Positions 1,499 through 15,867 of a DNA stretch of 23,752 bases are shown here, one piece after another. Numbering within the stretch: position 1 is the stretch's first letter; each line of letters opens with the position of its first letter. The notes beneath the pieces are model-generated. The model had not been told where the DNA came from and ran no database searches. It saw only the letters and a program-made list of their open reading frames with translations. A program made the position numbers and the translations under genes. Origin of the DNA: a virus; the UHGV virus genome UHGV-0369329; one strand, written 5' to 3'.

Positions 1499-3496
1499 TT
1501 ATATTGCAGATATTATAAAACATAATAATTCTTCATATCTTATTCCATATCGCTCACCCCCTTCTATAGATATTCTGCGTTCTCCAGTATCATATTCAAT
1601 TAATTTTTCATCACCGGATTCTTCATCAAAAATTATCTTTTTAGCAATTACTGGTTCGTATTCAGTTTCCCATTTATCATAGCAAAAAAGACCATAGTCG
1701 TTTGCATCAAGCCCTTCTTCAGCAAATGCTTTATATACATCTTGGGCAATAATGCCAAAATGTAATCTAGCATTTTCTCCTTTTTCAATTACTGAATCTA
1801 TAAATCTAAAACAACAAACCAAACCCTTTATTTTATATGCAACACGTCTCTCTGCATCAGTAATCGGTCTTTTATCAGTCTTAACTCGACCATCCGATGT
1901 GTTAATCGTTGAAGTGCCAGCAAATATTGTATTCCACCTTCTGGATGCTGAACCGCAATTTCTAGCGTTATCTGTTGCTGGTTGTACCGACGCATCAAAA
2001 CGAGCATAATTATTCTCATCAGAAACAGGTCCCATCAATCCACTCAAAAAAGGGAGCCCGCTCTGATTAGCAATTATTAATTGGTTGTCACCTGAAGAAA
2101 TTGCCGAACCGGCATTGGTTCCGATAAATATATTACCTGTTCCAGAGCTTAACGATCTACCAGATCTATATCCAAGCATTACATTGTTACTTGCCGAACC
2201 AATAGAATTAAGTGAGTCGGCTCCTACTGCGACATTATTCATCCCTGTAGATGTGCCTGTATAAGGGTTATCTATAGAAGAAATCCCTCTTCCTGATCCG
2301 CTACCAATATATGTATTGTTATCTCCATTTGTAATCTCCCTTCCGGATGCATTGCCTATAAATGTGTTATTATTTAGAATGTTATAAGACAACCTTTTGC
2401 CTGATTGGTCTGTAACAATTCCAGCTCGCATTCCAGCCGCTCGACCTATTGCAACATTACCACTACCAGTATGAAGTTGTTGTAATGCACTTGATCCTAC
2501 TGCAACATTAAAATTTCCTTCTTTATTTTCATTTAGGGCATCGCGCCCAATTCCAATTATGTTACTAGCTGTGGTTGATTTTTTGCACGCATTCACACCA
2601 ATTGCTACAATCTCAGTGCCAGTGCATGGCGATGTATCTGTGAGATCGTCTTGAAGGGTATCACCTGATAATACACCTGTCCCAATTGCTGTAATGTTAT
2701 TGCCCGTGCTAATGTTTCTTCCTGCACTTGGTCCAATCGCAACAACTTGCCCGGATATATCATTTCCATTATATATCTTGCCAGCATCAAAACCAAAAAA
2801 AACATTTCCAATTGTCTGAGCAGGATTTGCAAATGGAATAGGTTCGTCTCCTTTACTTTGTATTATTTTACCAGGGCCATAAAATTTTCCATTAATATAG
2901 TTCTCAATTAAATAAGTACCTTGTGGAACATAAACACCGTCAGGTGAAACTGAAGATGCATAGGAAAATATATGTGTTGCGTCAATATTGCCATTAACAA
3001 TGTCGCTAACATCTTCATGTTTTACAAAATCAAGAATACTAATATTCTCTGCATTTTTATCATGCTGTGTTCGTTTTGTAGAATTAATTAAAGGTTGTTT
3101 TACTGTGATTAATGAATCACCAAGCCCATCATCTGAACTTAAAAGTTCTTGCCTTAACTGATCCGGGTCATACTTCAGCACATTAGGAAAATAAAACTGC
3201 TGCGCACCATATGCATCATAAACAGCCATAGAATGGCCTTGCACAGTTACGAACTTGGCAATCTGTCCGTTATATACCGGATATCCGGCAGCGTTAATGA
3301 TTATTGGTTGCGAAACAGGAATGTGAGAACCGTCTTCGTTCTCTACATAAACCTGAATCTGGTTTTCAGGATTTACCGGGTCAGTGTCAATTTTACCGAT
3401 ATAAATTTTGCCATTGGCTACGGCTTTAAAAGAACGCGCCATAGTGAAGAGTTGCGAAGGCATACTCACTACAACATTGGCTGTAATGTCTGTCAT
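1499..3496 (-). CDS. Tailspike/tail fibre: P22 gp9-like N-terminal head-binding domain, glycine-rich repeat fibre, C-terminal intramolecular chaperone (S74-type) domain
   Basis: N-terminus [43 protein letters not shown]...VLKYDPDQ matches the P22 tailspike head-binding domain. The middle has many G-x-x-A/N-rich repeats. The C-terminus has the TSDGRVK autoproteolysis-type motif followed by a chaperone-like domain. GGAG RBS lies 8 nt upstream of the ATG at 3496. Confidence 0.85.
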
Positions 3497-3628
3497 TTAA
3501 TTTGCTCCAGATACAAGGAATCGCCGCAGCATGGCTACGGTTGGCATTTGTTACATACCGAAACGGTACGATTGTTGATTTGTACAGTGGGTTTTACGAT
3601 GCCATTCCACCCATTTGGTGAGACATTG

Positions 3629-3886
3629 ATGATGTACAGCAAATACGATGAGGCGCAGTTCCACTTGAGGCTTACACACGAGTTGCACGCTAAGATTAAG
3701 CAGCGTGCAAAAATGAATAACAGGTCTATCAATTCCGAAATTGTGGCTACGATGGAAGAATCACTCTCCAAACCATCACCTGTAAGCGGGTATCGTGATG
3801 AAGAAGAGAGGCTGGCCTCATTAATCTCGGAACGAGTAAAAGAAGTTGCGGCTGAAATTCTAAGGAAAGAAAAAACCCGCGATTAA
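3629..3886 (+). CDS. Mnt-like ribbon-helix-helix repressor, 85 aa
   Basis: C-terminal part of track ORF 3233..3886. FHLRLTHELHAKIKQRAKMNNRSINSEIV...SKPSPVSGYRDEEERLASL aligns along its whole length with P22 Mnt as I recall it (FNFRMPMEVREKLKFRAEANGRSMNSELL...SKPSPVTGYRNDAERLADE). The 5' part of the track ORF is antisense to the tailspike gene. Confidence 0.75.
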   Translation: MMYSKYDEAQFHLRLTHELHAKIKQRAKMNNRSINSEIVATMEESLSKPSPVSGYRDEEERLASLISERVKEVAAEILRKEKTRD

Positions 3887-3900
3887 GCGGGTTTAGTTTT
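3873..3900. terminator. Bidirectional intrinsic terminator between convergent Mnt-like gene and antirepressor-type gene
   Basis: AAACCCGC-gattaa-GCGGGTTT, followed by AGTTTT on plus and by TTTCTTT on minus. The TAA stop of the Mnt-like gene (3884-3886) sits in the loop. Confidence 0.65.
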
Positions 3901-3912
3901 CATTATAAAATG

Positions 3913-4641
3913 TTACGCCACATTTGAGCCATGTAGCAGGTGTTGTAGTGCTTTAACGCCTTCAGAATTGTAACGGAACGCCTCTACCTGTTTGCTGGAA
4001 TGCGCCGATTTATCTAGGAAGAACTTCCCGTACTGCTCAGTTTTGAGGTTGTTTGCGTTAGCAATGCGACCAATCTTGTTGGCCGTTACTCCAAGCTGCT
4101 CTGCAACCTCCCCTGCTGAGTAGTAATGCTCTTCTATTGCCGGAAGAGGTATTGCATTAAAACCAACGAGCGGGTTGATTATACTTGCTGCCGCTGTCTG
4201 CTTTGCCTCAGGCGCAAGATTTGGCATCAGATCGAACAGATTGGTAACAGCTTCAACCGTCATTTTCAATGTTCTCGCTTGACGATACTCAACAAGTCCA
4301 CTCGCTGATTTACCGCTTTTAATGTGCGCTTCTTGCATACTTTCAAGTTGGTCTACCAGTGAGCGGCGAACGGCTTTTGACTCGCGAGCGGCAACTCGCA
4401 ATGCTTGCTTGATTGACATCTCAATGATAACCATCGAAGTTTTGTTCGCTTTTTGCACTACACTTTTTGTGTAGTGCTCTCCATCCAATTCATCTTCAAT
4501 TTTCTCGATGAATTTGTTATTACGAACCTCCGGCTCACCGCACTGTCTACGAGCCTGATTTACCATCTCAAGCAGGCGCTGGCTGTCAATGGTTTTATCC
4601 GTGACAACGGATCCGATGTTTGCTACATTCTTAAAAGTCAT
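3913..4641 (-). CDS. Antirepressor-type protein with C-terminal KilAC/ANT-like segment, 242 aa
   Basis: Start moved to the ATG at 4641 (MTFKNVANIG...), which has an AAGGAA RBS 6 nt upstream; the track ORF starts 17 codons earlier without an RBS. C-terminal YSAGEVAEQLGVTANKIGRIANANNLKTEQYGKFF resembles the KilAC/ANT domain of phage antirepressors. Family assignment is from memory. Confidence 0.55.
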   Translation of the reverse strand: MTFKNVANIGSVVTDKTIDSQRLLEMVNQARRQCGEPEVRNNKFIEKIEDELDGEHYTKSVVQKANKTSMVIIEMSIKQALRVAARESKAVRRSLVDQLESMQEAHIKSGKSASGLVEYRQARTLKMTVEAVTNLFDLMPNLAPEAKQTAAASIINPLVGFNAIPLPAIEEHYYSAGEVAEQLGVTANKIGRIANANNLKTEQYGKFFLDKSAHSSKQVEAFRYNSEGVKALQHLLHGSNVA

Positions 4642-4710
4642 TAGGCATTCCTTATGTGGTAGTAAGGGTGTGACATAGGCCGCCAGCAGCACACTGGCGG
4701 TTTTCTTTTT
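4636..4710 (+). ncRNA. Candidate sar-like antisense RNA, about 75 nt, opposite the RBS and start of the 3913..4641 gene
   Basis: Extended -10 TGcTACATT at 4621-4629 (possible -35 GTGACA at 4601-4606, 17-bp spacer). Intrinsic terminator CCGCCAG-cagcaca-CTGGCGG at 4680-4700 followed by TTTTCTTTTT at 4701-4710. The transcript would be complementary to the AAGGAA RBS (4648-4653) and ATG (4639-4641) of the minus-strand gene. No credible plus-strand CDS here. Confidence 0.45.
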
Positions 4711-4729
4711 GCGCCGTCCGGCGCACCAA

Positions 4730-5356
4730 TCAATGAATCCATTCCTCGCCGCGCAGTTTTGCCAGCATTGGCTGAGCGTTCTTTACGACAAAATTGTTGG
4801 TATCAAGATTCTTCATTTCACGAAGAAGTGATTTCTTGGTTTCTTCTGACATATAGCGAGTCTCATATGCGATATCGTAAATCCTTCCTGAAAGCTCAGA
4901 ACAAATTTGCTTCATTCCTGGGTAGATGTGTTTGCACATTTGTTGACTCTTCTCCATCCACAATTGTAAGTAGCAGAGATTAACCAGTTCTTCGTCAGTA
5001 AACTGTTTTGCAATCGGTGAGCATTCTGCCTGCCGATCCAAAATATCCAGCACCCAGCGGCGGAACTCTTTGGCTACCGGAGTGCGAGCAAACATCGCGA
5101 TTAGGTGGGCACCGCGTAGTGAGAAAACTCGCACTTTTTTGCGATAATTTCCTGAGGTACTCACTTCGAGTACCTGAGTCATTCCGGCGCTAAACTCATC
5201 GCTATACTTGTTATAAATCATTGTTACTGCACGACTATTTGCGTATTTAAGTGCAGATGCAATATTAGATGATGTAAACCAAACACCATGCATATCACGG
5301 GTGGGCACCAACTCAACTCCGTGGAAGTTGTAATCTGATTTTGCTACAATATTCAT
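4730..5356 (-). CDS. Antirepressor (Ant-like) with Bro-N/AntA-type N-terminal domain, 208 aa
   Basis: Start moved to the ATG at 5356 (MNIVAKSDYNFHGVELVP...) with an AAGGAA RBS. HGVWFTSSNIASALKYANSRAVTMI...VRVFSLRGAHLIAMFARTPVAKEFRRWVLDIL fits the Bro-N/antirepressor N-terminal pattern. Sits downstream of the Arc-like gene as in P22 arc-ant. Confidence 0.6.
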   Translation of the reverse strand: MNIVAKSDYNFHGVELVPTRDMHGVWFTSSNIASALKYANSRAVTMIYNKYSDEFSAGMTQVLEVSTSGNYRKKVRVFSLRGAHLIAMFARTPVAKEFRRWVLDILDRQAECSPIAKQFTDEELVNLCYLQLWMEKSQQMCKHIYPGMKQICSELSGRIYDIAYETRYMSEETKKSLLREMKNLDTNNFVVKNAQPMLAKLRGEEWIH

Positions 5357-5431
5357 GTTAGTTTCCTTGCATACGGTTACTGACATAGAAGCCCGACTCG
5401 TGTTCGCGCACTGTCGGGCTTCGCTATTTTT
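5357..5431 (+). ncRNA. Candidate sar-like antisense RNA, about 75 nt, opposite the ant RBS, terminating at the 3' end of the arc-like gene
   Basis: Extended -10 TGcTACAAT at 5342-5350. Terminator hairpin GAAGCCCGAC...GTCGGGCTTC (5388-5422) followed by TATTTTT (5425-5431). The transcript would cover the complement of the ant RBS (5364-5369). Same architecture as P22 sar (promoter near the ant start, terminator at the arc end). Confidence 0.5.
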
Positions 5432-5597
5432 ATGTCCTAGCATTCTTCTCTCCAATCAGTCCGTACACTTTTCTCAATTGATAAATAAGTTCCGTGTTGA
5501 ACTGTCGACACTCTTTTTCTCCATTTCTTTCAATCGCCTTCCTTACATCCTCTGGGAAACGAACCTTGCGTTGATACATGTCTTTTGCTTTTTCCAT
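5430..5597 (-). CDS. Arc-like small ribbon-helix-helix protein, 55 aa; below the length cutoff of the ORF track
   Basis: Hand-translated codon by codon: MEKAKDMYQRKVRFPEDVRKAIERNGEKECRQFNTELIYQLRKVYGLIGEKNART. Strong RBS AAGGAG 5 nt before the ATG at 5597. A beta-strand-like QRKVRFPEDV followed by helix is RHH-like, though the NG...E motif is less canonical than in Arc. Position is upstream of ant and divergent from the Mnt-like gene, as for P22 arc. Confidence 0.5.
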   Translation of the reverse strand: MEKAKDMYQRKVRFPEDVRKAIERNGEKECRQFNTELIYQLRKVYGLIGEKNART

Positions 5598-5720
5598 CTC
5601 CACTCCTTAAATAGCCCCACTGTGGGGCAATCGAAATTGTCACACCGTGCGTCATTGAAGTCAACCCCACCGTGGGGCATAATTTACTTATTGTGAATTT
5701 TTCCTGTTTGGACTAATGGT
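5598..5720. promoter_or_regulatory. Divergent promoter/operator region (Pant-like leftward, Pmnt-like rightward) with twin palindromic operators
   Basis: Palindrome 1 GCCCCACtGTGGGGC at 5614-5628; palindrome 2 CCCCACcGTGGGG at 5665-5677. Plus-strand promoter TTGAAG (5655-5660), 17-bp spacer, CATAAT (5678-5683), with palindrome 2 in the spacer. Minus-strand promoter TTGACT (complement of 5659-5664), 17-bp spacer, GACAAT (complement of 5636-5641), with palindrome 1 over the predicted start/leader. The two -35 hexamers overlap. Confidence 0.6.
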
Positions 5721-6095
5721 ATGAGTAGAGAAGACCCTCAACTTCGGATTAGGCTTCCTGTTGAATTAAAAAAAATAATTGAAGCGTCATCAAAACAAAA
5801 TAATCGTTCTATGAATGCTGAGATTGTCACTCTGCTTGAGTTGGCGATTCGTGTTTGTCGTGATTTTGGGCCGGAGGATGGTCCTATCGTTCAGCAGTTT
5901 AAAGAACAACTAGATGCGATAAACAGAAAATATGATAAAATCGAGCATGAAAAACTTATACCTCAACTTTTAGAAATCATAGAAAAACAGAAAAAACAAG
6001 TAGATAAACTTATTAGCATGGTTGAAAGATCAATTCCTCTTTCAGAGGAATATAAGCAGAAATATCTTGGTGATGACAACAAAAAACCCACCTGA
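5721..6095 (+). CDS. Mnt-like RHH repressor with extended coiled-coil-like C-terminus, 124 aa; positional equivalent of P22 mnt
   Basis: N-terminus MSREDPQLRIRLPVELKKIIEASSKQNNRSMNAEIV matches the Mnt N-terminus (MARDDPHFNFRMPMEVREKLKFRAEANGRSMNSELL as I recall). Divergent from the arc-like gene with the operator region between. Confidence 0.7.
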   Translation: MSREDPQLRIRLPVELKKIIEASSKQNNRSMNAEIVTLLELAIRVCRDFGPEDGPIVQQFKEQLDAINRKYDKIEHEKLIPQLLEIIEKQKKQVDKLISMVERSIPLSEEYKQKYLGDDNKKPT

Positions 6096-6105
6096 CGGTG
6101 GGTTT
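6084..6105. terminator. Bidirectional intrinsic terminator between convergent Mnt-like gene and the 322-aa gene
   Basis: AAACCCACC-tgac-GGTGGGTTT; on the minus strand followed by TTTTTTGTT. The TGA stop of the Mnt-like gene (6093-6095) lies in the loop. Confidence 0.6.
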
Positions 6106-6110
6106 CATAA

Positions 6111-7079
6111 TTAGATTTCTGGTTTCATTCTTCCGAAAACCTTTTCTATTCCTTTTTCGTATTCTTCTCTTGTCTCACTCATCGCTGCGACACCAAGAAG
6201 CTTACCGATATGCTGACGCAAAGCCTTGACACCAATTTCAGAAAGGAACAGATGCAACTTATCAGATTGTTTTCCGTTCTCGTCTCGGCTGGCTCTAATT
6301 TGTTCAAGGATTTTACCTTTACTCTTTGCTAGCGGGGTGTATATCTGCATGTTGGTTAGCTGCCCAAAACGAATAGGCCGTCCTTTCTCTGGCCTATTCA
6401 GGCCGTACAGTCGATACCACTCCTCGTATAGCTCATCTGGAAATTCCTTTTCATATTGACGAGCCTCTTCACGAACAAACGCTTTGAACTCGTCAATGAC
6501 AGCCTGAACTTCTGGACGATAACCAGCAAGCGCATACGCAACCCCCTTAATTCCCGCCTTAGCGGAGGCATTAATAAGTCTCTGTGCTGCGGCGGCTGCC
6601 TTTAACCGTGATTGTGGTAGATCGTCATTATCTTTGGCTTCTATTAGTGCCCTACCAATATCAACAATTGCTGTAATGTCATAACCTAACGCTTGATGAA
6701 CGGTTTTAGACTTCGAAGTAAGTTGAAATTTATAGGGATTTTCCATTTTTCGCTGCAATTCTAGATCTCGGTATTTGCTCATATACTGAGCGCCAAGCAG
6801 TTGATCTAAATCCCTGGCATGTTCACCAATCCCTAGCAACTGAGATAATCCAGTTTTCGTAACAACGACAGTTTTCGACTCGTCATCCAGTACATAACAT
6901 TCAGCATCAATGCCAAAATCATCTAAAAAGTTACCACGATGAGTTGCCCTGAGAATCTTACTTTTCCATCTTGCAGCAGCTGCTTTCTTTGCTATTTCAG
7001 AACGCTGCTCTTTAGTCAGCGACTTTGCGCGAGCGATCCCGCCCTTAGCTTTCCCTTCGCCACTTTTCTTTTCAGTCAT
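6111..7079 (-). CDS. Hypothetical 322-aa protein in the sieA/accessory slot; basic N-terminus with HTH-like SEIAKKAAAARW motif
   Basis: Start moved to the ATG at 7079 (MTEKKSGEGKAKGGIARAKSLTKEQRSEIAKKAAAARW...). Hydrophilic with no obvious TM segment. Not recognisable as any P22 structural protein. A possible P63C-type assignment is only a vague recollection. Confidence 0.55.
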   Translation of the reverse strand: MTEKKSGEGKAKGGIARAKSLTKEQRSEIAKKAAAARWKSKILRATHRGNFLDDFGIDAECYVLDDESKTVVVTKTGLSQLLGIGEHARDLDQLLGAQYMSKYRDLELQRKMENPYKFQLTSKSKTVHQALGYDITAIVDIGRALIEAKDNDDLPQSRLKAAAAAQRLINASAKAGIKGVAYALAGYRPEVQAVIDEFKAFVREEARQYEKEFPDELYEEWYRLYGLNRPEKGRPIRFGQLTNMQIYTPLAKSKGKILEQIRASRDENGKQSDKLHLFLSEIGVKALRQHIGKLLGVAAMSETREEYEKGIEKVFGRMKPEI

Positions 7080-7170
7080 AATGCAAGCACCTTTGTTGTG
7101 ATGTATGCTTGCATTATATACACTGTACACACATACAAGCAAGCATAAAGCTAAAACAAAATGCTTGCAT
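7080..7170. repeat. Four copies of a TGCTTGCATTA / ATGCWWGCAT motif in alternating orientation in a divergent intergenic region
   Basis: ATGCAAGCAC at 7081-7090 (reverse), ATGCTTGCAT at 7105-7114, AAGCAAGCAT at 7137-7146 (reverse, partial), ATGCTTGCAT at 7161-7170. Copies at 7105 and 7161 share ATGCTTGCATTA; the copy at 7081 abuts the start codon of the 322-aa gene. Confidence 0.6.
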
Positions 7171-7235
7171 TACAACCGCGCTACTCCAACTACACATTAT
7201 CATCTGGTATCCTGCGCAAAACTAAGGAGGTTGGT

Positions 7236-14613: not shown

Positions 14614-15867
14614 TTACTGCCCGGCAATAACGATGCCCGTATATTCAGGAACAAGTACAGAGCAACCGTACAGAGTGGTGAAACGAGCAGTGGTTACGCC
14701 TTTGATGTGGTCGAAGGCGTAAGACATGATCAGCGTAGCGCCCTGCTCTGTGGTTGCTGTCATTACCTGTGGACCCTGACCAGTCGGGAACGCCAGTTTG
14801 CCGTACATCAGCTCAACAGAACCATCAGCCCAGAACAGGTTAGCAGGTGCTGCGTTCTTGTTGAGAATGGTGATTGCTGCTGATGCTGCCGGTTTGGCAT
14901 CGACGTTTGCATATGGACGACTCGCAACATCGGTATTTTCAACAGGGAGAATCTTTGGAGAGATTGTTACGGTAGTTCCGCTAACAGCCAGAACACGGAA
15001 TACCTGCGGTTGCCCGGTGGTATCTTTTGTGATCTGGTGTACGGAATTCACACCGGCAATGGTGAACGCATCACCAACCTGCAAGCCAGATGCAGATACC
15101 GTAATAGTCCCCTGTCGGTTATCAACTGGCATACCATTTGAATCTTTCGCTTCAACCTTGTGTTCAGGTTGGCCTGATACTGTCAAGGATTCAGTGCTTC
15201 CTTTCGGTAATCGACCAGAAATATCGGTCTTGTAGCTATCAAAGGAAGCAACCGGAGGGATCTGCGCTTTTTCGTATGCTGTCAGGGTTGCGCCCTGAGC
15301 ATAGGCACGGTGACCAAGCTCGCCAGCAAGGTCTTTGTAGTTGAAGGGGTTCCAGAAAGAGCGACGGTTGATACCCTGCGGTACACCTATCGCCGTCATG
15401 GTGGCATCAATACCTGCCGCACAGTTCCACAGATCACGGCCCTGTGTACCTGTGGTTGAGTCAGCCATCGTGATCACGTTAGTAGCACGCTGCGTAACCA
15501 TGGAAATCAGGTCAGAGTCAATCTGTGCAGCAAGGCGCATACCTGCGGCTCGACCAGCTTCAGTTTTATGTTCCGGGTCACGCATTTCACGCGCATCCAG
15601 AGTGTACAGAATGTTTTTCGGCTCCTTGAACACAGAAGGAACAAGGCGCTGAACCAGTGCTGTTGGCGTTTTGCTGCTGAGATCGAGGCCTTCCTCAATG
15701 TTCATGTGGTAATGCTGCGGACGATACAGAACATCACCTGCTCGCTGCATTGCGGTATCACCGGGACGGAATTTTTTAGCGTTACGGGAAACTACGCAGG
15801 CGGCCTCAAAGCCTTCAACGTAGTTTTCGAACATGATTTCAAGGTCTTTTGCTAATTGGTTAGCCAT
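14614..15867 (-). CDS. Major coat protein, P22 gp5-type, 417 aa
   Basis: Synteny after scaffold; conserved blocks resembling P22 coat (AGVNSVHQITKD versus AGVKFLGQMAKN; NLFWADGSVELM versus NVFWADDAIRIV, from memory). Confidence 0.85.
   Translation of the reverse strand: MANQLAKDLEIMFENYVEGFEAACVVSRNAKKFRPGDTAMQRAGDVLYRPQHYHMNIEEGLDLSSKTPTALVQRLVPSVFKEPKNILYTLDAREMRDPEHKTEAGRAAGMRLAAQIDSDLISMVTQRATNVITMADSTTGTQGRDLWNCAAGIDATMTAIGVPQGINRRSFWNPFNYKDLAGELGHRAYAQGATLTAYEKAQIPPVASFDSYKTDISGRLPKGSTESLTVSGQPEHKVEAKDSNGMPVDNRQGTITVSASGLQVGDAFTIAGVNSVHQITKDTTGQPQVFRVLAVSGTTVTISPKILPVENTDVASRPYANVDAKPAASAAITILNKNAAPANLFWADGSVELMYGKLAFPTGQGPQVMTATTEQGATLIMSYAFDHIKGVTTARFTTLYGCSVLVPEYTGIVIAGQ

Follow-up and report, generated by a model that had tools for sequence, protein, structure and literature searches.

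Control of the antirepressor gene ant by the small antisense RNA sar of phage P22 is a textbook case of antisense regulation. In P22, the immI region occupies the slot between gene 16 and the tailspike gene: arc comes first and is followed by ant, a terminator, and gene 9. The sar promoter (Psar) lies inside the first codons of ant; transcription of the RNA begins directly past the start codon, and the product folds into two hairpins and ends at a terminator in the arc-ant spacer. For the sar mechanism, the relevant passages of PMC2629481 cite Liao et al. 1987, Wu et al. 1987, and Schaefer & McClure 1997; read-through of ant from the late promoter is described in PMC12111858. Phage P1 has an immI region of its own (c4 - icd - ant1/ant2), in which a small antisense RNA controls the antirepressor at translation according to the P1 annotation. 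It also carries PaskilA (P53as), an antisense promoter in the 5' coding region of the KilA-N/KilAC gene kilA (AF234172 annotation, 2695-2731), whose transcription start is annotated in the same record 19 nucleotides (nt) inside the kilA open reading frame (ORF). Here, we compare with these systems a locus of the virus genome UHGV-0369329; the whole stretch analyzed, 23,752 nt long, is referred to as the window. In the immI slot of this genome, two tandem minus-strand genes, ORF1 and ORF2, stand where P22 has ant.

Judged by their domain content, ORF1 and ORF2 are two different, individually complete genes of the antirepressor family. We consider it likely that they belong to one operon in which each is gated by its own antisense RNA of ~75 nt, called sar1 at ORF1 and sar2 at ORF2 (Table 1). 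The P22 design would then occur here twice in one operon. P22 continues after ant with a terminator and gene 9, whereas this locus continues with a second gene and a second predicted antisense unit. Gene structures, domain relations, and the conservation and placement of the promoter and terminator elements are evident at the level of sequence comparison, and we describe them below for each gene.

A sequence-only reading of the window had described the pair as one antirepressor divided over two genes, with a Bro-N/AntA-like N-terminal domain in ORF1 and a KilAC/ANT-like C-terminal segment in ORF2, each with its own ribosome-binding site. Both ORFs and their ribosome sites are present: AAGGA lies 7 nt 5' of each ATG, and 88 nt separate the genes. 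Bro-N is also found in ORF1 (residues 23-105; E value, 1.8e-10; 41.7 bits against a Pfam cutoff of 25.6), but the reading missed a P22_AR_C domain (PF10548) at residues 117-184 (E value, 5e-13; 49.3 bits against a Pfam cutoff of 22.4). This C-domain aligns with residues 206-274 of P22 Ant (E value, 1e-9) and is followed by a C-terminal tail of similar length. P22_AR_N (PF10547), the N-domain carried by P22 Ant and by one other locus (L011), is absent from ORF1 in the Pfam search, and Bro-N stands in its stead. Because P22_AR_C lies beside Bro-N as it lies beside P22_AR_N in P22 Ant, ORF1 is, by its predicted architecture, a complete antirepressor-type protein with the full two-domain layout of P22 Ant and a swapped N-domain. 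It matches the PHROG family "anti-repressor Ant" (E value, 5e-52), and antirepressor activity would be expected from its homology to part of P22 Ant.

ORF2, in turn, has an N-terminal domain of its own and is not the KilAC/ANT-like segment that had been proposed. A search of Pfam and NCBIfam gave nothing significant, and the Pfam ANT model (PF03374) matched neither ORF2 nor its last 95 amino acids (aa) even at E≤10. None of 24 ORF2 family members matched ANT at E≤1, and nine of them gave weak HTH_17 matches; the positive controls P1 Ant1, P1 KilA, L111, and L117 matched ANT with E values of 1e-30 to 1e-33. Given no significant Pfam or NCBIfam match, we dropped KilAC/ANT as a membership label. 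Comparison of the ORF2 C-module with three true ANT domains by hhalign yielded a probability of 6.8% (E value, 0.005), with a helix-turn-helix (HTH), a hairpin, and a helix in like order. The AlphaFold2 (AF2) model of ORF2, with a predicted local distance difference test score (pLDDT) of 70, has an alpha/beta N-domain at residues 17-84, long helices, and a winged HTH at residues 176-237, and residues 1-14 are predicted by AF2 to be disordered (pLDDT<50). In BFVD, the model matches whole phage regulators of the antirepressor, KilA, KilAC, and Rha types (E value, 2e-9) with a template modeling (TM) score of 0.3, a low value that arises because the ORF2 domains are free to move; a PDB fold search returned only weak matches to winged HTHs of the MerR/RacA/Xis type (E value about 0.1). 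The C-module (residues ~170-240, a winged HTH of MerR/Xis type) sits where ANT sits elsewhere but is not recognized as ANT by sequence.

The other end of ORF2 points to P1. Residues 14-106 share 66% identity over 95 aa with residues 112-206 of P1 Ant1 (E value, 6e-39), which form the core common to Ant1 and Ant2; a true ANT domain follows in P1, whose Ant proteins end in Pfam ANT/KilAC, whereas ORF2 lacks it. ORF2 aligns over its full length with phrog_1726 (residues 1-242 against 1-264 of 264; E value, 7e-101), and it has ~2100 standalone homologs of 241-250 aa in Escherichia coli, Salmonella, Serratia, Morganella, Proteus, and Pantoea, none of which contains a Pfam domain. ORF2 is therefore a complete two-module protein of the antirepressor type, made up of a P1-Ant-like N-module (residues ~14-106), long helices, and a winged-HTH C-module. 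Its homology to part of P1 Ant suggests antirepressor activity.

Iyer, Koonin, and Aravind are said to have described, in 2002, a domain-shuffling network of phage regulators built from BRO, KilA-N, Rha, and ANT domains. The modules of ORF1 and ORF2 recombine in a similar manner with Bro-N, KilA-N, Phage_pRha, ORF6N, ANT, and P22_AR_C; unlike the members of that network, neither ORF2 module is covered by a Pfam model. The ORF2 N-module is fused to a true ANT domain in P1 Ant1, L111, and L117; elsewhere, it occurs with at least four other C-modules. In Providencia, Photorhabdus, Xenorhabdus, Yersinia, Moraxella, and Clostridia, the C-module, counted from residue ~90-110, has Bro-N, KilA-N, or Phage_pRha as its fusion partner. 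Two contigs labeled "Chryseobacterium sp. 18061" (L092) and "Bacillota bacterium MAG" (L110) contain an ORF2 sequence of the enterobacterial type (59-76% identity), and the former also carries the GCCGCCAG terminator; both probably reflect contamination or mis-binning.

The sequence-only reading had also placed a candidate antisense RNA at each gene, and this part of it holds: promoter and terminator elements are present on the plus strand at the 5' end of both ORFs. The unit at ORF1 resembles P22 sar. Its predicted start, at position 5357, falls directly after the CAT of the ORF1 start codon, as in P22, and the RNA would comprise a hairpin (5357-5384), a terminator (5388-5422), and a T-run (5427-5431). 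Together with its promoter, sar1 is identical to P22 Psar and sar in 76 of 117 alignment columns (65%), and blastn aligns sar1 with P22 sar at 71% identity over 84 nt (E value, 5e-6). The predicted fold has two hairpins, as does that of P22 sar, and a free energy of -33.5 kcal/mol (z score, -5.7; P22 sar, -5.3). For units of this type, we relied on blastn because a strict perfect-stem terminator finder missed the bulged terminator of sar1. By position, promoter placement, fold, and sequence, the putative sar1 is a diverged homolog of P22 sar that lies below the score for membership in the Rfam sar family (RF00262).

At ORF2, the predicted start of sar2 is at position ~4636; on the plus strand, the CAT of the start codon lies 3 nt further on, so that the first bases of the RNA would pair with codon 2 and then with the start codon. 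A 5' hairpin (4650-4667) over the anti-Shine-Dalgarno sequence is followed by a terminator (4678-4702, or 4677-4703 in the terminator scan) and a T-run (4701-4710). The promoter pattern GTGACA-17-TGnTAnAnT is invariant in all 91 loci that have this 5' end, which represent 34 distinct RNA sequences and at least 10 genera. Among 17 diverse ORF2 homologs, just 4.5% of the 223 codon columns keep the same nucleotide at the third position throughout, yet codons 5, 6, 7, 12, and 13 all do so. The invariant nucleotides in these 5' codons spell positions 1, 2, 4, and 6 of the -10 element, the upstream TG, and the -35 element; the residues that codons 5 and 6 encode are variable, with conservation of 65% and 53%. 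In the terminator helix, nine pairs are kept, three of them by compensatory changes. Homology among the loci ends directly past the T-run wherever the upstream gene differs, which assigns the unit to ORF2. A sar2 covariance model scores 74.7 bits at the window locus, and sar2 is 58% identical to sar1, with some motifs in common. The conservation of these elements goes beyond chance, and we conclude that sar2 seems to be a widely conserved antisense unit, related in design to P22 sar.

We propose that transcription from the Pant-like promoter would run through the arc-like gene, ORF1, and ORF2 to the terminator behind them. A constitutive-looking extended -10 promoter in the early codons of each of ORF1 and ORF2, pointing backwards, would produce an RNA of ~75 nt that is stopped by an intrinsic terminator in the spacer 5' of the gene. 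Each RNA would be perfectly complementary to the Shine-Dalgarno sequence of its own gene, and sar2 to the ORF2 start codon as well. By pairing with mRNA derived from Pant or from late read-through, each would block translation initiation of its own gene; through this pairing, both proteins would be made only when sense transcription gets ahead of the antisense RNA, and they would be gated separately. Transcription of sar1 and sar2 and repression of translation by them would follow the precedent of P22 sar. The calculated energy of the cognate duplexes is -152 kcal/mol, against -45 and -43 kcal/mol for the non-cognate ones and -35 ± 5 kcal/mol for shuffled sequences; pairing of the RNA of one system with the target of the other is thus close to background.

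Control of an antirepressor at translation by a small antisense RNA, annotated in P1 and predicted here, is what this locus would share with P1 immI. The two differ in that c4 arises by processing of the same transcript and targets the icd leader via short sites, whereas sar1 and sar2 are predicted to act in cis with their own promoters and terminators, and there is no icd-like ORF at this locus. PaskilA resembles the units described here in being an antisense promoter within 5' coding sequence and differs from them in gene and sequence; a scan of P1 with the sar2 covariance model found nothing. PaskilA is a third documented case of the antisense promoter design in this protein network.

It is extremely improbable that ORF1 and ORF2 are the N- and C-halves of one ancestral antirepressor parted by a stop or a frameshift. 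Direct fusions of the ORF2 C-module to Bro-N, found in proteins of Providencia, Proteus, Photorhabdus, Moraxella, and Clostridia, would fit such an origin; yet ORF1 has its own P22_AR_C domain and ends as P22 Ant does, and ORF2 has its own N-domain, with M1 kept across genera. Fused, the two would make a protein of four modules; no such protein was seen, and of the relatives found the longest is P1 Ant1 with 347 aa. The 88-bp gap contains no coding relic: ORF2 is in frame +1 relative to ORF1, translation of the gap gives nothing conserved, and the gap is made up of the antisense terminator and the ORF2 ribosome site. The two genes also occur apart. SPN3UB has ORF1 without ORF2, phiKp_30 has ORF2 with ORF1 reduced to a 22-nt relic, and in 80 IMG/VR loci ORF2 is preceded by at least eight different genes, nearly all of the antirepressor family and including a canonical Ant with P22_AR_N and P22_AR_C. 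Domain searches and comparison with P22 Ant, for ORF1, and with phrog_1726 and standalone homologs, for ORF2, find both ORFs complete, in agreement with the earlier view of two functional-looking genes, each with a ribosome site and an antisense transcription unit of its own, and at odds with the view that the domains of one protein are shared out between them. ORF1 and ORF2 show no homology to each other, and we rejected the idea that they are paralogs. If both genes are complete, their products could still act as one complex, as P1 Ant1 and Ant2 do with C1; the P1 record states such a complex, and the core of Ant2 is common to ORF2. An ORF2-type gene lies beside an antirepressor-family gene, usually one encoding a P22_AR_C protein, in 76 of the 80 IMG/VR loci, and the Stx2a phage F451 has the pairing in the opposite order (an ORF2-like gene and then an AntA+P22_AR_C gene), with sar2 absent. 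We nevertheless regard a two-part antirepressor as rather unlikely: the upstream partner varies widely, and P22_AR_C is undetectable in five loci (L016, L043, L063, L077, and L083); in SPN3UB, the partner of ORF1 is an unrelated ORF6N gene; P22 Ant works alone; and gating by separate antisense RNAs would point to independent regulation of the two proteins, not to their production in stoichiometric amounts.

Several results weigh against the proposal that each gene has its own antisense RNA of the sar type. RF00262 (threshold, 43 bits) gave no match at E≤10 in positions 3500-6200; as a control, P22 sar itself (positions 15023-15090 of the P22 record) scores 97.8 bits, and the model seems too restrictive for sar annotation in many prophages of the P22 type. 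Across the window, only the tRNA exceeded the Rfam gathering threshold, and neither antisense unit falls in any Rfam family; at E≤10, the units gave only spurious matches of the terminator type (SymR, 0.15; SgrS, 1.2). The sar2 covariance model detects neither sar1 nor P22 sar, so that sar and sar2 may or may not share descent, and the 5' hairpin of sar2 does not align across genera. The ORF2 homologs of Stx2a phages and of the loci L070-73 have no sar2 unit, so that the unit is not obligatory for the ORF2 family. Finally, the sar2 fold is weak relative to shuffled sequences (z score, -1.9). This last value, and the presence of the same hairpin after the ORF1 homolog of SPN3UB, would also suit a locus without antisense RNA, in which the hairpin at 4678-4702 is a 3' stabilizer or processing site of the ORF1 mRNA and the 5' codons of ORF2 encode an N-terminal peptide signal. 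We find that explanation quite improbable: when the upstream gene changes, the hairpin tracks ORF2 and not ORF1, and it lacks a U-tract on the sense strand, whereas the plus strand has a canonical terminator. Moreover, residues 1-14 are variable as well as predicted to be disordered, while the -35, TG, and -10 nucleotides are invariant at a fixed 17-nt spacing, a pattern at the 5' end of ORF2 that selection at the protein level cannot yield. An antisense unit at each gene remains the reading that we prefer.

Outside the set on which it was trained, the sar2 covariance model found sar2-type units, with a promoter inside the ORF and the same terminator, at the 5' ends of other genes. The ORF6N gene of SPN3UB has one at its 5' end (L004, 2437-2532; 47 bits; E value, 4e-7), where the hairpin is paired with TCGACA-17-TGcTACATT inside that gene. 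We had tried this gene as a possible relative of ORF2 and rejected it (BLASTP E value, 1.0), as it encodes an ORF6N protein. Further units occur at the 5' ends of genes that combine Bro-N or pRha with the ORF2 C-module, and of others (L095-L100, L106, and L109); where the start is assignable (L095-L097, L099/L100, and L106), the unit starts 5-6 nt into the coding sequence. ORF2 shares its first ~15 codons (M..LT[LV]AN...VTK) with the genes of Yersinia and Chimaeribacter, in which a different domain follows. A sar-type unit before the first ant gene together with sar2 before ORF2 is the usual arrangement, found in 70 of the 80 IMG/VR loci, and this tandem layout also occurs in loci from Serratia, Pantoea, Citrobacter, Kluyvera, and Buttiauxella. 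We tentatively suggest, as a possibility rather than the expected outcome, that sar2 is a portable "self-silencing 5' cassette" comprising an antisense promoter in the first ~15 codons, a leader, and a terminator. Such a cassette may have spread by recombination among genes of the antirepressor family (P1-Ant-like, Bro-N, pRha, and ORF6N). If so, a single phage operon could accumulate a number of antirepressors, each gated on its own, which might act on different repressors or work in two parts like P1 Ant1/Ant2.

In a literature search of incomplete coverage, we found neither a second sar-like RNA nor tandem antirepressors described for a P22-like immI, and sar2 looks like an undescribed, portable variant of a known regulatory design. 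The second copy of that design would guard a widespread, unnamed protein family whose members are "hypothetical proteins" in RefSeq, have no Pfam model, and share a core with the P1 antirepressor. If the antisense units are real, sar2 would represent a new small-RNA family conserved across Enterobacterales prophages and absent from Rfam, its promoter would be a clear case of constraint on synonymous sites in a coding region, and regulatory RNA cassettes would travel with the first codons of the genes that they silence. In practical terms, our analysis corrects the annotation of the gene pair in P22-like prophages of E. coli and Salmonella, including long ORF calls that cross terminators. At this locus, such calls start at TTG 5455 for ORF1 and GTG 4692 for ORF2; we rejected both, as they cross the terminators and homologs begin at the ATGs.

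The genomic setting agrees with these assignments. The window derives from a P22-like prophage of E. coli that adjoins tRNA-Arg(CCT), and the Escherichia phage JEP4 (Lederbergvirus) is 92.6% identical to the region with gene order unchanged. With the P22 map as the reference for layout, the immI or "ant moron" slot spans positions 3500-7200, reads on the minus strand, and is flanked by a gene-16-like ejection gene and the tailspike gene. As in P22, an arc-like gene comes first; its product gives a weak match to Pfam Arc (E value, 0.0012), belongs to the PHROG "Arc-like repressor," and is encoded at the position of P22 arc. The region contains nine terminator-like sites, against 2.8 ± 1.7 in shuffled sequences. 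Of 5426 complete E. coli genomes, 68 contain the ORF1-ORF2 pair, with ORF2 labeled "hypothetical protein"; the pair is found in published phage genomes as well.

Table 1. Predicted features of the ORF1-ORF2 operon and its antisense units, with positions in the window
Feature	Position	Strand	Description
Pant-like sigma-70 promoter	5636..5664	-	TTGACT-17-GACAAT with upstream TG; found by consensus scan; at the P22 Pant position; predicted to drive the arc-like gene, ORF1, and ORF2
Arc-like ribbon-helix-helix gene	5430..5597	-	55 aa from ATG 5597; alternative GTG start at 5603
sar1 (~75 nt)	5357..5431	+	Complementary to the ORF1 ribosome site and leader
Psar-like antisense promoter	5321..5350	+	GTGGAA, 18 nt, TGc-TACAAT (5342-5350); inside ORF1 codons 3-12; aligns with the annotated P22 Psar
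ORF1	4730..5356	-	ATG 5356, stop 4730; 208 aa
sar2, predicted antisense RNA (~75 nt)	4636..4710	+	Covers the ORF2 start codon and ribosome site
sar2 promoter	4601..4629	+	GTGACA-17-TGcTACATT; inside ORF2 codons 5-14; found by scan
ORF2	3913..4641	-	ATG 4641, stop 3913; 242 aa
Bidirectional intrinsic terminator	3873..3894	both	Ends the ant operon (-) and the convergent Mnt-like gene (+); found by terminator scan
Mnt-like gene	3629..3886	+	Convergent with ORF2; shares the terminator at 3873-3894

Other features of the neighborhood differ from the P22 map. P22 carries mnt on the far side of Pant; here, the Mnt-like gene is at the opposite end of the operon, and a different gene, encoding a 124-aa ribbon-helix-helix protein (5721-6095, plus strand), occupies that position. 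Two near-identical 15-bp palindromes, GCCCCACTGTGGGGC and ACCCCACCGTGGGGC, at 5614-5628 and 5664-5678, bracket the Pant-like promoter and overlap the divergent plus-strand promoter (5655-5683) of the latter gene; they are probably operators of the Arc/Mnt type. A P63C-domain protein (phrog_2384, function unknown) is encoded at 6111-7082 on the minus strand, in the slot of P22 sieA. In JEP4, an extra 73-aa ORF without a Pfam match (4202-4423), which the window does not have, lies between mnt and the ORF2 homolog. More than 100 Stx2a-converting phages encode a full-length ORF2 homolog (59-63% identity), each without the sar2 unit; in F451 (2492-4705), this homolog belongs to an early-region cluster with the AntA+P22_AR_C antirepressor gene and an antirepressor pseudogene. 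At the edge of the window, the tRNA-Arg(CCT) gene (25-99) is followed by an integrase-sized ORF (225-1418) that reads away from it, directly beside the tailspike gene; the prophage ends here, at argW, and the layout of the integrase module is unlike that of P22.

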